The position numbers and the translations under genes are program-made. 64,000 nt of DNA from NCBI GenBank assembly GCA_044892525.1, contig CM097887.1, forward strand, positions 101,720,397 through 101,784,396, read 5' to 3'. The notes beneath the pieces are model-generated. The model worked only from the letters and a program-made list of their open reading frames with translations. It made no database searches and was not told where the DNA came from. The DNA is from Schmidtea polychroa (Eukaryota). Within the stretch, counting starts at the first letter, position 1; each line of letters starts with the position of its first letter. This document shows, piece after piece, positions 3,111-64,000 of this stretch.

Positions 3111-3813
3111 AAATAATAAATTAAAAAATATTAATTAAAAATCAAAGAAAAAATTAAAAATGAATATTTTCCGGGGGAAACTGGTATCGGCGGATGCTAA
3201 ATAATGAGACAAGTTCAATTATAATAAAATAAAATCAATGTGGGGGGGGGGGAGTCCCTCGAAGGAATAAATTACAAAAATAGGCAATGTCTTTTTGAAA
3301 TAACATATGTTTCGTTGTCTGATAGGTTTCCATTGTGATATTGTTTTCTTCGAAAATTATTTTCATTTGTGTTAAATATATTATTCGTAGTAAAGGCTTA
3401 AANNNNNNNNNNNNNNNNNNNNNNNNNNNNNNNNNNNNNNNNNNNNNNNNNNNNNNNNNNNNNNNNNNNNNNNNNNNNNNNNNNNNNNNNNNNNNNNNNN
3501 NNNNNNNNNNNNNNNNNNNNNNNNNNNNNNNNNNNNNNNNNNNNNNNNNNNNNNNNNNNNNNNNNNNNNNNNNNNNNNNNNNNNNNNNNNNNNNNNNNNN
3601 NNNNNNNNNNNNNNNNNNNNNNNNNNNNNNNNNNNNNNNNNNNNNNNNNNNNNNNNNNNNNNNNNNNNNNNNNNNNNNNNNNNNNNNNNNNNNNNNNNNN
3701 NNNNNNNNNNNNNNNNNNNNNNNNNNNNNNNNNNNNNNNNNNNTTTACGGAGTAGATTGATGGTAAGAAAGTCCAAACAAATGAATAAAATTTAATTATA
3801 TTTAAAATCTTAC

Positions 3814-52664: not shown

Positions 52665-53594
52665 TTAACTAATAACTGATCCCATTTGTTGATCCATTGG
52701 CCATTCACCAACTAATTTGCAATCCTTAGGCTTCTGTACTTTAAGACGTCGATTCTGTCCCATGTCAGTTAACCATGATTCCCATGGCACAATAATTTGC
52801 TTAGGAGGCACTAAAATTTTGAGTTTTTCATTAAGATCTCGTGGATACCAAATTAAGCTCTGAGCCGCATTACAATGAGGTGGACTTAATGCAGATAATG
52901 GTAGAGGTTTACAAGTTTCCAATACGTATGGAGTTTCTTCTTGAACATCATACAATTTCTTTAATCGTTGACCAATTGGCTTATTCGGATCAAATATCAT
53001 GTGTAAATTATATCTCCATCTCATTGTTCGTAAAACATGTACATGATCATAACGTGGATCGAAAAGTGATAGTTCTTCATTTTTCTTTTTGCCTCGTCTT
53101 ATAACAACAAGCCAAACCCAAAAGTCTTGCTTTCTTATAACGTCAGTTAATTTCGTTCCACCACAATATGGTAATTCCCAAGCCACTGTTGGATAAAAAT
53201 GATCCTCATAATGAAGCGACACAATTGATTCATGGACAAGTCCTTTTTTCAATTCAAATTTACTACTTGTTAAACTATAAAATGGATACTGCCTACCATC
53301 ACTATCATTTACCATTGTATGACGGCCACTCTTTAAAGGATGAAATTCCCAATATGAACTTCCAATGTCACCGTATCGGTTTTCTAAATACATTCGATCA
53401 CAGGCTTGAACCAGCCCAATACTCCAATTCCTATCGGTTTCACCGGATCCAATCGCCAATTTCACTTTGCATCTGAAATGTTGACTTTCATATTGAAGTA
53501 AATTTGAAGTCTCATTAGTTTTTGTTGACGTCTTTTCATCGTAATAAACTCTCACAGAATTGACTTGAATGTTATTAAGGCCAAATTTTGTCAT
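52665..53594 (-). CDS. FAM78: FAM78-family protein, single coding exon, 309 aa
   Basis: Intact ORF with W.IGLVQACD.M...N.YG..G.S.WE and NDSDGRQYPFY motifs, resembling FAM78A/B (WIQAC...FYN.YG..GMSSWE...SDSDGV.YPWY). In-frame stop directly before the ATG. Confidence 0.85.
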   Translation of the reverse strand: MTKFGLNNIQVNSVRVYYDEKTSTKTNETSNLLQYESQHFRCKVKLAIGSGETDRNWSIGLVQACDRMYLENRYGDIGSSYWEFHPLKSGRHTMVNDSDGRQYPFYSLTSSKFELKKGLVHESIVSLHYEDHFYPTVAWELPYCGGTKLTDVIRKQDFWVWLVVIRRGKKKNEELSLFDPRYDHVHVLRTMRWRYNLHMIFDPNKPIGQRLKKLYDVQEETPYVLETCKPLPLSALSPPHCNAAQSLIWYPRDLNEKLKILVPPKQIIVPWESWLTDMGQNRRLKVQKPKDCKLVGEWPMDQQMGSVIS

Positions 53595-56013: not shown

Positions 56014-59000
56014 TCACATTATTTCATGCCTATAAATATAAGCTATTATAATTAAAAGTATTAAAATTAATAATCCGATGATTAAATACATTGTCAATCT
56101 GCTTTTTTCAATATCTGAAATATATTTAATTAACTTATTTTTCCGAAACAATTAGGTTTTACCAACTAATCTGTAACATTTAGAATTATTCATATTAGCC
56201 TTATTTCCACAAATCACGCATATATTTCGATTTGTAAGAGTTTTATCGGGATTAATTGTGATAACGAGATCACTGCTTAATTTATAGGACTCTTTTGGTA
56301 TTCCTATAACTACAAAACTCACTCTTGAATATATAACATATTTCGGTTCAAATCGGCACATTATGCCATGTTGTTTAAAAAAATATAGTTCGAAGGTATT
56401 TGGAGTTATTGTAACGTTCACATCTCCATCTAAATAATACAATTTATAATTTTCGTTTTTTCTTTATTCTTAGGCAATTTAGTTGGACATATATTGCAAA
56501 TTAAAGTAATATTTCACGAATACTTTGTAAAAAAATACGGCTATTGTAATATTTATTAAATAAATCAGTAATATATCGATGTTTTTGATATATAACTGAT
56601 TTATAGTCTTCAAGCTCTTCTTAATAAATATATATATATAAATATTTATTAAGAAGAGCTTGAAGACTATAAATCAGTTATATATCAAAAACATCGATAT
56701 ATTACTGATTTATTCAAGCTCTTTTTAAAATAAATACAATGGGAAAAAAAATCAGTGGTGAAATTGGAAAATAAATTTCTTATAATAATATATTAGAAGC
56801 TTTTTTCAAATTTCACCACTGATTTCTTTTCAATTGACATTCTATTTATTAAAAAGCTTGACTATGAATCTGTAAATATATCGATGTGTTTTTGATATTC
56901 ACAAATTTTTGGCACTGCCTTTTTCAAGCGATTTTTATATGGTTGTCATTATTATTTTATTATTATTATTTATTAATTATTATTATATGAATCTTTTATG
57001 TTTACTATTCAACATTTCTAACGGCATCTGAAAAATTATATATACACGGAATTCATCAAATTAGTATTAAGTATCAAGGAGAAATATCTAAAAATGATTT
57101 TTAAAAAAAGTTAATTAAAAAATAAATATGAATATGAATTCAAAACAAATTGATAGCAGCCGAGAGAATTAAATGATTATTTGACAACTTTATTTGCAAA
57201 AATCTTTGGAGGAGATTGATAAGAATAAAAGTTAATTGTTTTCGTTTTAGAAATTAAGTAAAACATTTTAGGAAGTATTTTCTAGTAGAGATTTGTAGAG
57301 GCGATTGTTGCGAATCGAATGAGCTCTAAATCTTTGAGATATGTCGAGAAGATTTCTATGAAATCAAAGAATGGTGGGTAAAATATTTTGTAAAGGGGGG
57401 CTGCATTTTCTCTCTTGGGTGTTACGGGCTCACAATATACTACTTCAATAAAACAAAAATAAAAAACAATGGTAAATTTCTAGTTTTTTAGTTCTATCAA
57501 ATTGAAGACATTTTAATTTGAAAAATATTAGCCCTTGCTGTCTATGAACGTTTTTGAGACTGGAAACCATTCAAGAAACTGTGATAGTTTAAAGTTAAAA
57601 AACTACCGTAAATATCTGTGTATTGTTTAATATTTATAATTATTTAAATTTTACAATGTTTCGATTTATTTTAATGAATACCAAAAAACAAAAATATAAT
57701 TTTACCATATGGTGTATAACATTTGATAGTTTCTGCCGGAATCTCAGGATGGCCGCAAGTCGCACAAATACTATCATTTGTATTATTTCCTCCTCCCAAA
57801 ATAATCACACTCCTGTTATATCTTTTTATATCAGTTGAATTAATATTTGTAAACCGAATATCAGGATAATAATCATAAATAGTAATAGGAAGAGCTGAAC
57901 AAGTAACTTCCATTTGATCATGTATTAAATAATGCTTTGATTCATTTGGGAATATTTGAAATTTTACAATATCAGCTATCACATTAATAAATTAATTAAT
58001 TCACATTAAGTTACTTACAAAATACGTCTATTGATAAAGTAAAATCTTCTCGTAATATATTTAATTTACATGAGAAAATGTAGGTCCCATTTGTAACATT
58101 TTTATTAATAATTATTTGACTTGGTTGAAAACTGAAATTTGATGCTTTATCTATTTTGCACATTACAATATAATGTCTGTCTGGTTTGTAATTATCGGTT
58201 AAAATTACGTTTAAAGTTGTATTTGTCCATGAGAAATATATTTTTTGAACGGGAGAATGCTGTAGNNNNNNNNNNNNNNNNNNNNNNNNNNNNNNNNNNN
58301 NNNNNNNNNNNNNNNNNNNNNNNNNNNNNNNNNNNNNNNNNNNNNNNNNNNNNNNNNNNNNNNNNNNNNNNNNNNNNNNNNNNNNNNNNNNNNNNNNNNN
58401 NNNNNNNNNNNNNNNNNNNNNNNNNNNNNNNTTTAAGCCTTTTACTACGAATAATATATTTAACACAAATGAAAATAATTTTCGAAGAAAACAATATCAC
58501 AATGGAAACCTGTCAGACAACGAAACATATGTTATTTCAAAAAAACATTGCCTATTGCATCACGTGCAATGTACGCAAAGAGATATACACTGGAAGTACA
58601 TTCAGGAGTTAAACAGTTAAAGAACAGTTAAAAATATTTCAATCGAAATCTTAGCCAATGGAAACATCCAAAAAATGTGAGATTTAAAAAAACAATTTTC
58701 ATCATAAACAGACGGCAAACAATGAACACTAAAGAAGAGATCAATGAGATAGATCGTCAGTTTGATTTGTTGTTATTGACCTTGAGAAGAACTTTTAAAA
58801 AAATTAAATTAAAAATTAAAAAATAATAATTTAAAATAATATAGAAAAATAGATCAAATTTTAAGGAAATATACTTTTAAAAGATCTTTAAGAATAAAAA
58901 TTAAAATAGAAACAATTTTTTTATATATTTAAATTACGTATATAAATAGTTATTGGAAATTATATTTTATAAATATTTTAAGATATTATTTATTAAAGGA

Positions 59001-62404: not shown

Positions 62405-62490
62405 CTGAATCTTTAATATCTTTAAATGCTCCATGTTCAATTACTGCTTGGGGAGAAGGTCTATCGAAAAGACATAATTATGATTTAGCG
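62405..62490 (-). pseudogene. Possible N-terminus of a Polinton major capsid protein (truncated)
   Basis: AKS*LCLFDRPSPQAVIEHGAFKDI resembles the remembered Polinton MCP start (KSELDLF..PP.Q..IE.G). It lies directly downstream of the A32 ATPase. Confidence 0.5.
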
Positions 62491-62555
62491 CTAATCATTT
62501 TTCAAAGATCGTACCATATCCTCTCATTCTTTTTTTCTTAATTAAATTTTAAATG

Positions 62556-63182
62556 TTTTCAGTTTTGTTTATAAATCGTAACAACGTTTATATTAAAAAT
62601 ATCTTTTCTAATACGCATATCATCAGCACATTATTGTGTAAAATCAAAAAATAAATATCCATGGGGAATTTTTGTCGCATTTTGGAATGATTATATTAAA
62701 AATTTTCTATTATTAGGATAAGCTTGTCTTGCAATAAAATCAATTATTGTTTGATCTCTAGGATTTTTGAAAATAATCAAATATTGAACATTTAAATTAA
62801 GTGTTCTATGACTTCCACCTTGACGAAAAAGATATTGTGTTATGAAAATAACTGTAACTCCACAATGTCTACTAATTTTTGTAAATAAATTATTAAAATC
62901 ATTTTCTTTATTTGCTTCCTGATACAAATCATCGATAATAATAACATCACCTTGACATAATCTAGATGACCAATTTTTATCAAATCCTTTAATTATTGTC
63001 ATTTTTAACTTACAGAAACTGTTTTGAGTCAATCCATGCTCTTCATCTGTGCCTCGATGCCAATATATTTTATTAAATTTGGATTTAAAAATGTTTGATT
63101 GTAATAAATTACATACAAATAAAGTTTTCCCACTTCCACTAGGTCCTACAATTTGATATACCGCATCATTTATTAATTTCAT
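62556..63182 (-). pseudogene. A32/FtsK-HerA packaging ATPase of Polinton/adintovirus type (premature stop)
   Basis: Walker A GPSGSGKT, Walker B VIIIDD, ISRH, IFITQ and QYLIIFKNPRD. After the stop at 62691 the frame continues SFQNATKIPHGYLFFDL, the usual C-terminal motif. Confidence 0.88.
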
Positions 63183-63231
63183 TTTAATTAAATTATTTTA
63201 TTTAATTTGTTTATAATTAGAATAATCAAAC

Positions 63232-63707
63232 ATGATAAGAAACATCAAGTATAGAAGAAGATGCTTAGTGGATGGAATAAAGTTCCCATCAAGTAAACCT
63301 CAACATATTGTGGACAGAAGCGGAAAATATCCAATTTTTTTCTTCAAGAGTGGGAAATGCAGGATAATGGGATGTGAGAAACCTTTACAAGAAGGTGATC
63401 TCAAACATCTGATTCAAGACTTGCAAATACAATCAATTACATAACTTTAGATATTGGTACTTGCATTGATTTAAATGCATTGTCAATGAAAACCAATAGT
63501 TACTACGAACCTGAAATATTTCCATCTTAACGAATTCTCAAGTATAACTCTCTATGCGTCAATGTTTTTTCAAGAGGTAAAGTGGTTTTATTAGGAATTC
63601 AAACTTTTGACAATTTTAATCAAATTCAAGAAATTCAGAATTTCATGAAATCATTGACCATAAATATTACAACAAATGAAGAAATGTTGGAATATTTATT
63701 AAGTTAA
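63232..63707 (+). pseudogene. TATA-binding-protein-like gene (two TBP repeats), frameshift and stop
   Basis: Repeat 1 PIFFFKSGKCRIMG. After a 1-nt frameshift at ~63441: TLDIGTCIDLNAL...YYEPEIFPS*RILKYNSLCVNVFSRGKVVLLG, matching TBP repeat 2 (YEPELFPGL.Y.......IF.SGKVVLTG). Confidence 0.75.
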
Positions 63708-63718
63708 TTCAATAAATT

Positions 63719-63934
63719 GTGTTTAAATCAATTGATTATCTACAAAAACATAAATTCAAAAAAATGAATGACGAGAAGCAAGCGTATATATTCCAAAAAA
63801 TATTAACAAAGATGGAAGAAATGTTCCCTAATATAAAGAATCGACTTTCATATTGTGCTCCTGAATTATTAGCTTATAGAATCAAGCAATTAACGGGAAT
63901 CAATATAGAGGAAATTATACGAATGCATTACTAA
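63719..63934 (+). CDS. Small hypothetical ORF, probably part of the same Polinton-like relic
   Basis: Co-oriented and tightly packed after the TBP-like gene, intronless; no recognisable motif. Confidence 0.35.
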   Translation: MFKSIDYLQKHKFKKMNDEKQAYIFQKILTKMEEMFPNIKNRLSYCAPELLAYRIKQLTGINIEEIIRMHY

Positions 63935-64000
63935 TCTATGCAGGAATCAAGATTTAAATGCCAAGACGATTGTGAGGTCTGTATAGATCCGATGAAATTA

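Follow-up and report, generated by a model that had tools for sequence, protein, structure and literature searches.

A candidate late transcription switch in Polintons that carry their own minimal TBP

Polintons/Mavericks (adintoviruses, Starrett et al. 2021) are characterised, in the parts of PMC8502044 used here, by pPolB, an rve integrase, an A32-type ATPase, an adenain-like protease, capsid genes, a pX-like core gene, terminal inverted repeats and a 6-bp target duplication. The element analysed here has all of these in common with them, but unlike the Polintons described in that material it has a TBP that forms a separate clade, together with a shared YATAAACA box. The legend of Fig. 5 of the same paper carries the label 'TBP' for at least one MELD virus or related element, without analysis in section 3.4, and TBP is not mentioned in one of its supplement files. 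TBP terms were also absent from the text of the 2026 PLV framework preprint, the coral polintovirus paper and the cryptophyte PLV paper, and in the portion of the Cymbomonas paper used here TBP was given only for mirusvirus-like elements. Polintons are transcribed and piRNA-repressed in one animal, according to the part of PMC8532177 used here.

Cellular TBP (PF00352) shares with the element protein the saddle fold (145 residues), a complete C-terminal repeat, three intercalating Phe and an acidic stirrup, whereas the element TBPs have lost F99, carry eight changes on the DNA face and form a long-branch clade, and those of the derived subgroup have no N-lobe helices H1 and H2. A TBP fold encoded by the virus is also common to the TBP-like proteins of nucleocytoviruses and mirusviruses (best BFVD match E 1.5e-8), but these are only 8-21% identical in the BFVD matches, and such viruses mostly pair TBP with an RNA polymerase of their own. 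Beta- and gamma-herpesviruses have a vTBP (KSHV ORF24, EBV BcRF1), which is a TBP mimic working with a non-canonical TATT box for late genes (parts of PMC12529657 and PMC4893493). The vTBP and the element TBP have a polar DNA face in common, and V122, T124, V161 and L205 are altered in both. However, ORF24 as described in the same part of PMC12529657 is a multi-domain protein of 752 aa with direct binding to Pol II; it acts as part of a multi-protein complex and is without the acidic TFIIB residues, whereas the Polinton TBP is a bare 158-aa core with the acidic residues, and the function that has been shown for ORF24 is proposed here for the Polinton protein.

The relic and the Polinton family to which it belongs

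The window, which is the whole stretch of 64,000 nucleotides analysed here, comes from a eukaryotic host assembly of 781 Mb. Its segment at 62.4-64.0 kb is a dead, internally deleted piece of a true Polinton/Maverick (Table 1). The preliminary description had read this segment as a Polinton-like relic with a TBP-like gene divergently paired with a packaging ATPase and a capsid start, and much of what it listed was found again. The ATPase gene, whose minus-strand ATG is at 63182, has the motifs GPSGSGKT, IIIDD, RH, TQ and FKNPRD and passes the Pfam cut-off for Pox_A32 (E 5.6e-6), the TBP-like motifs FKSGKCRIMG, YEPEIFPS and VFSRGKVVLLG are present on the plus strand (ATG at 63232; two frames, one in-frame stop), and the two ATGs, which had been put about 50 bp apart, are separated by 49 bp. 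The capsid-like N-terminus is real, and the copy is dead as stated, with stops and a frameshift in comparison with the natural copy.

Table 1 Features of the Polinton relic in the window (window-extended positions continue past position 64000)
Feature	Position	Strand	Evidence or remark
Start of the major capsid protein (MCP) gene, first 28 codons, one stop, remainder absent	62415..62498	-	tblastn match of 89% to MCP residues 1-28 of the natural copy (407 aa in full)
Putative core-protein gene (132 aa), last 12 codons, overlapping the MCP start	62498..62533	-	tblastn
Junction of the internal deletion, about 4.1 kb	62536..62545	.	blastn against the natural copy: element position 3208 jumps to 7329
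A32/FtsK-type packaging ATPase, 207 codons, two in-frame stops	62562..63182	-	Pox_A32; 92% to the natural protein
TATAAACA box within the 3' end of the ATPase gene, reading YKQ	62566..62573	-	sequence
Second box, TATAAACG	62585-62592	-	sequence
TATAAACA box, putative late promoter, 32 bp 5' of the ATPase ATG	63208..63215	-	sequence
Reduced TBP gene, one frameshift near 63441, one in-frame stop at 63528-63530	63232..63707	+	tblastn 83-84%, two frames
Small Cys-rich helical ORF, continuing to window-extended 64108, two stops	63764..64000	+	115 aa in other copies
Decayed subterminal repeats past the window end	window-extended 64312-64789		comparison with the natural copy

The capsid start adjoins the ATPase end in the window because of the internal deletion, in which the pX-like gene, the integrase, both putative minor capsid genes and the greater part of the core gene were lost. 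In whole copies, the box that falls within the 3' end of the ATPase gene precedes the next gene. Element similarity starts at 62418, so the ORFs left of this position are not part of the element; at the other end it dies away about 0.8 kb beyond the window end, in subterminal repeats that are themselves decayed. The ORF from 63764 encodes a small helical Cys-rich protein, at low confidence. The main block is 87.7% identical to the natural copy compared, which means that the insertion is old and dead. It had been suggested that pPolB, integrase and a terminal inverted repeat be looked for beyond 64000. Decayed subterminal repeats were indeed found there, but the three features themselves occur only in natural copies: pPolB is absent from the window copy, its integrase is deleted, and a search of this copy for the terminal motif gave 0 matches, with no terminus present.

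The fragment is not a lone relic: it comes from a complete Polinton family in which at least 150 copies have an open TBP gene. Searches of the genome gave at least 150 matches for the ATPase (149 of those listed at 93-94% identity; 4691 candidates) and at least 150 for the TBP, all those listed being at 98-100% identity without a stop. The copies examined were the best-scoring ones and not a random sample, and an open 158-aa TBP was present in 28 of the 30 ATPase loci fetched from them. Four loci were read in 40-kb context. One natural copy is about 17.9 kb long and has the gene order terminal repeat, Cys-rich ORF and TBP (leftward), ATPase, pX-like core gene (Adeno_PX in Pfam), integrase, two putative minor capsid genes, a 132-aa gene, MCP, protease, RING gene, pPolB and the other repeat. 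Terminal inverted repeats whose ends begin AGTAG were found in 4/4 loci read, and 6-bp target duplications were clear in three of them, the fourth being located in a microsatellite.

The pPolB of the natural copy is an ORF of 1432 aa with PolB motifs seen directly and an endonuclease VII insert; it has itself no PF03175 match, and five of eight aligned relatives do match (best E 7.4e-24). Matches above cut-off were obtained for the integrase (PF00665, E 1.2e-8), the ATPase (PF04665) and an adenain-like protease (PF00770, E 7.1e-6) encoded directly 3' of the MCP gene. As this protease was found by tblastn and Pfam, an initial reading of family 1 as having no protease was overturned. The MCP (407 aa) scored 0.98 in the ESM Atlas to clusters in which 24-30% of members carry PF21738 (DJR-like), and a relative matched Capsid_N weakly (E 0.007), which gives a double jelly-roll identity moderate support at the sequence level. 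PDB sequence searches with MCP and pPolB returned nothing significant. At the place expected for minor capsid genes lie two paralogues (341 and 338 aa) that had no Pfam or PHROG match and take their label from position. The element is therefore a Polinton by every feature testable save the minor capsid fold. At least four TBP-carrying Polinton families and one TBP-less lineage were found in this genome. The locus itself is an ordinary dead Polinton fragment; what is distinctive is the family, whose minimal TBP forms a separate clade and whose virion genes are preceded by a non-canonical box that matches it.

Fold, DNA face and relatives of the element TBP

The preliminary description had proposed a PF00352 comparison, and the result depended on the copy used: the second-repeat pieces of the window gene stayed below cut-off (E 0.0025 and 0.028) and its N-terminal piece had no match, but the natural open copy (P0001, 158 aa) matched PF00352 at E 3.4e-16, and 35 TBP sequences were matched in PDB. 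An AF2 model built from a 113-sequence alignment had a mean pLDDT of 95.1. The best Foldseek matches were all TBP (E 6.7e-9), and comparison by VIA with TBP gave Z 13.1 and rmsd 2.4 over 145 aligned residues, against Z 6.8 for the best non-TBP structure; identity to cellular TBP in structural alignment was 22-28%. The strands of both repeats are present in the model, and DSSP assigns helices only at 81-87 and 129-157, so the first repeat is predicted to be helix-free. Its segments have median lengths of 37 and 21 residues, compared with 47 and 34 in yeast numbering, and most members are 144-170 aa long. The label 'two-repeat' was thus right for the second repeat, which is complete, and only partly right for the first, since both of its helices are missing. 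In the same way the protein is minimal, as had been said, but its reduction goes further than the absence of an N-terminal extension, because the N-lobe helices are also gone. A basal subgroup keeps, by alignment, helix H1 and part of H2, yet already uses the ATAAAC box, which means that helix loss would postdate the change of target.

For residue numbers we use yeast TBP. The acidic C-terminal stirrup is kept in the element TBP: the equivalent of E186, presumably an acidic residue of the TFIIB stirrup, is present as its own E93 in 106 of 113 members, and E188, a TFIIB contact in the part of PMC12529657 used here, as its own E95 in 113/113. By sequence alignment, the stirrup that in cellular TBP contacts TFIIB is thus retained. 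The DNA contacts were taken from the yeast list in that source (Table 1 of PMC12529657) and transferred by sequence alignment, with the numbering between anchors counted by hand. Three of the intercalating Phe are kept (equivalents of F116 in 113/113, F190 in 112/113 and F207 in 113/113) and the fourth is lost; the F99 equivalent in the alignment is K22 or P23, and Phe is not among the commonest residues of the 113 members at either candidate position. On the DNA face, V71 is replaced by N in 108 members, V122 by R in 111 and T124 by M in 113; further replacements are N159 to S (108), V161 to T (99), I194 to R (107), V203 to C (110) and L205 to N (113). Eight positions aligned with DNA-facing residues therefore carry conserved, mostly polar residues. 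Three of these positions (I194, V203, L205) are also those of TBPm3, a mutant with altered specificity (part of PMC1636458). As a measure of selection among four families of this genome, dN was 0.28-0.38 and dS 1.13-2.23 in five of six pairs, and the sixth pair was saturated.

Relatives of this TBP, which in the preliminary description might already sit unannotated in other invertebrate assemblies, proved common in metagenome and sequence searches. A single-sequence search gave 123 TBP relatives, a representative library gave 114 clusters at E 1e-10 or better (ordinary TBPs counted in), and a profile search gave 296 at E 1e-20. The best 80 of 153 confirmed metagenomic stretches were fetched via the TBP gene. 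A Polinton core gene was found in 35 of the 80 loci, in 27/34 of those of at least 3 kb and in 12/14 of those of at least 5 kb. TBP and ATPase were no more than 1.7 kb apart in 26 of the 27 loci holding both, and their similarities to the window family were correlated (Spearman 0.63, n=27, loci related). The proposal of an endogenous Polinton lineage with its own minimal TBP is thus supported by linkage of TBP to Polinton genes in other loci. The divergent ATPase-TBP pairing seen in the window, by contrast, is family-specific: with a divergent order in 2/27 of these loci and a co-oriented one in 24/27, a head-to-head layout as a conserved unit was rejected.

In a quick tree of 95 rows, 58 assigned rows and one unassigned row (P0174) formed a long-branch clade with SH-aLRT 99; P0174, which had beforehand been labelled 'two-repeat', thus fell inside the Polinton clade. 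A second tree used a subset of 38 of these rows, with 57 left out including P0174, and here 12/12 Polinton rows formed one clade (100/100) and the six host rows were placed elsewhere. The sister group of the Polinton clade differed between the two trees, and one row of known viral-contig origin was included. Joining the clade to the two most canonical TBPs of the host was rejected with p-AU 0.0285 (LG+G4, with long branches in play), so the TBP phylogeny that had been proposed as a check gave no grouping with host TBP. The host has at least six TBP-family genes, some of which are apparently intronless in the core. It also has a divergent TFIIB gene without introns (301-310 aa open), which is present in at least 13 copies at C3:38.2-39.1 Mb and C1:23.8-24.2 Mb, and in the three such loci read no Polinton ORFs were seen around the copies.

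The YATAAACA box and the proposed late switch

Upstream sequences were compared at -110..-13 in non-redundant metagenomic sets, with starts picked by alignment. Against mononucleotide shuffles (these and the redundancy filter are coarse for such counts, and the loci are kin), ATAAAC was found upstream of 73 of 75 virion/packaging genes versus 5.7 in shuffles, and it was the top 6-mer in an unbiased count. By gene, it preceded the ATPase in 23/23, pX-like genes in 8/8 and 10/10, the putative minor capsid genes in 6/7 and 7/7, the core gene in 6/6, the MCP in 9/9 and the protease in 4/5. In this genome it was present within 100 bp 5' of the ATPase in 29 of 30 loci. The box is mostly located at -31 to -49 before the ATPase, and up to 106 bp from the ATG where genes overlap. 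TBP genes themselves gave another picture: ATAAAC preceded 4/51 of them, which is chance level (2.9 shuffled), and the full YATAAACA was found before 61/75 virion genes versus 0/51 TBP genes. TATAWAW was found before 29/51 TBP genes versus 11.0 in shuffles, and the other 22/51 were without it in the region tested. The 49-bp intergenic region of the window family shows no clear early TATA on the TBP strand. For CCAAT boxes there was no clear enrichment (13/51 TBP genes versus 8.2), and p53-type half sites were found in 0/51 TBP and 4/75 virion upstream regions.

The box also precedes the PLA2-like gene (8/9), a putative exonuclease gene (11/14) and the integrase gene (6/9), and it was absent before pPolB at both available starts. 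In six structural cassettes YATAAACA occurred 43 times in 37.2 kb, and once in 22.7 kb of pPolB; on the reverse strand the count was 0. Inside genes it falls in two reading frames, and a terminal YK[QH] is written with TAT-AAA codons in 21/24 cases versus 11/28 for YK in pPolB. An explanation of the box by conserved amino acids only is thus ruled out by its non-coding location before most ATPases, the two frames elsewhere and the codon bias. In the TBP-less Polinton lineage of the same genome, in which TBP was undetected (best E 0.08), ATAAAC was upstream of 0/25 genes checked (one lineage, three element copies). This lineage has a PLA2-integrase fusion, and in several of its genes the ATG is closely preceded by CATTTT in place of the ATAAAC box. 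Further TBP-less controls sought in viral contigs with ATPase, MCP and pPolB queries gave none, and a TBP scan of viral contigs gave one giant-virus-like contig.

The eukaryotic TATA consensus YWTAWADN excludes C at position 7 (part of PMC1935006), TBP can accommodate C-G pairs through Hoogsteen pairing, which avoids a clash (part of PMC4402545), and by the title of PDB entry 1qn3 a host-type TBP can bind C at position 7. The remodelled DNA face of the Polinton TBP and the C at position 7 of the Polinton box would therefore suit each other, and since elements that carry their own shrunken TBP have TATAAAC before nearly all particle genes, the protein likely switches those genes on, in analogy to the herpesviral vTBP and its TATT box. 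We thus propose, at a probability of about 0.7, that the element TBP binds YATAAACA and recruits host TFIIB and Pol II as the element's own early-to-late transcription switch. The TBP gene would be transcribed first by the host machinery from an ordinary TATA promoter, and the small TBP would then read YATAAACA, which host TBP would disfavour. TFIIA, TAF1, Mot1 and Brf1 presumably dock on the convex-face helices, and loss of these helices may free the small TBP from such host cofactors. Host TFIIB and Pol II would then transcribe the ATPase, core, capsid and protease genes. As the C-terminal TBP repeat is taken to read the 5' half of the box rather than position 7, and the TBPm3-equivalent changes lie in that repeat, the binding orientation could be either way. 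Counted against the switch are that the control is one lineage, that 22/51 TBP genes are without TATAWAW, that the box also precedes some non-structural genes and can lie far from the ATG where genes overlap, that host TBP can bind C at position 7 and that at least six host TBP-family genes could read the box; TBP-less close relatives keeping the box could not appear in the metagenomic set, because its loci were fetched through TBP.

The strongest alternative has a host factor as the reader of the box (TBP/TFIID, a paralogue of host TBP, or a forkhead protein) and gives the element TBP another job. YATAAACA differs from TATAAAAG at two positions only and fits what we take to be the forkhead consensus RYAAAYA, and the host does have its several TBP-family genes and the multi-copy intronless TFIIB paralogue. 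However, the box is one-stranded and at TATA distance, it is kept across elements with ATPases 34-75% identical to that of the window family, and the TBP-less Polinton of the same host does not use it. A forkhead site is further disfavoured because other sites of this type are rare before virion genes, with GTAAACA at 3/75 and ATAAATA at 5/75 (shuffled 1.0 and 4.4) compared with 61/75 for YATAAACA. A host reader is thus considered unlikely. The preliminary description had suggested that the TBP redirects host transcription, and this is kept as a rival in which the protein would act as a decoy or repressor, by sequestering TFIIB or by sitting on host promoters, and would redirect or dampen host transcription. 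A kept acidic TFIIB stirrup with the N-lobe helices gone is what a dominant-negative design would be expected to look like, but the DNA face is conserved and changed, not decayed, as would suit a new target site; there is a matching box specific to the element, and it goes with the presence of TBP in the one control lineage; and at least 150 open copies persist in the genome. The evidence therefore favours the switching on of the element's own virion genes through a private box, and we hold the decoy to be quite improbable. That the box is the late promoter of an unseen, virophage-like helper virus, with the TBP as an accessory or as a binder of the terminal repeats in replication, is very improbable indeed: virophages and some Polinton-like viruses are reported to share promoters with giant viruses, but no helper was seen, the TBP genes of the clade often have ordinary TATA boxes, which suit host Pol II, and no third party is needed to account for the box once the element has a TBP of its own.

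If the element TBP is a late switch, wider readings can be offered, with somewhat less confidence though still with the balance in their favour. A widespread Polinton clade would run an autonomous two-stage nuclear programme from a TBP of about 150 residues without regulatory surface, a private YATAAACA box and host TFIIB and Pol II. With the same reserve, such a system would have arisen independently of the late-gene machinery of herpesviruses as its much simpler counterpart, and its TBP and promoter would form an orthogonal pair. A dedicated late box with its own factor would suit a virus with a real particle stage, and together they make testable how Polintons time their capsid genes and whether those in animal genomes behave as viruses. 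The element TBP is also a natural experiment, which shows which TBP surfaces can go and has changes at the three residues altered in the laboratory mutant TBPm3. Since at least 150 copies are open, host genes that carry the box by chance could be affected as well if the element were de-repressed.

Other element genes and the surroundings of the relic

Neither an RNA polymerase nor a TFIIB gene was seen in these elements of 15-20 kb. The Cys-rich ORF after TBP had no Pfam, PHROG, Atlas or fold match and no BFVD match under E 1.3, only two near-identical homologues were found, and its model had a pLDDT of 60. On the same negative searches and the same pLDDT, a TFIIB/VLTF3-like partner was rejected for it. 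In most copies read, the integrase frame of family 1 is about 167 aa long and has a common end point, which could be due to an intron, recoding or a shared defect; the family 2 version is 358 aa long with a chromodomain. Some TBP-carrying elements encode an LRR-like protein with a probable signal peptide, and others have KilA-N-like, DEDD-exonuclease-like or SSB-like ORFs (all labels by eye). Several elements are palindromic deletion derivatives (C3:106.26-106.27 Mb, C2:167.12-167.13 Mb and C3:134.88-134.91 Mb) in which the same end is duplicated in inverted orientation and both termini are kept; pPolB is gone in two of them, and one has a clear target duplication.

The relic is flanked on both sides by ten exon-like frames of about 100 residues with a C-x(1-2)-C-G...C-Y/F motif, all on the minus strand (minus 10, plus 0). 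They include window positions 56155-56463 and 57674-57991 (minus) and reach extended coordinate 90718, and the ones scanned had no Pfam match. These repeated-domain frames probably belong to a host gene with the Polinton fragment in its intron. A 309-aa open frame at window positions 52665-53594 (minus), with no Pfam match, is probably a host exon.
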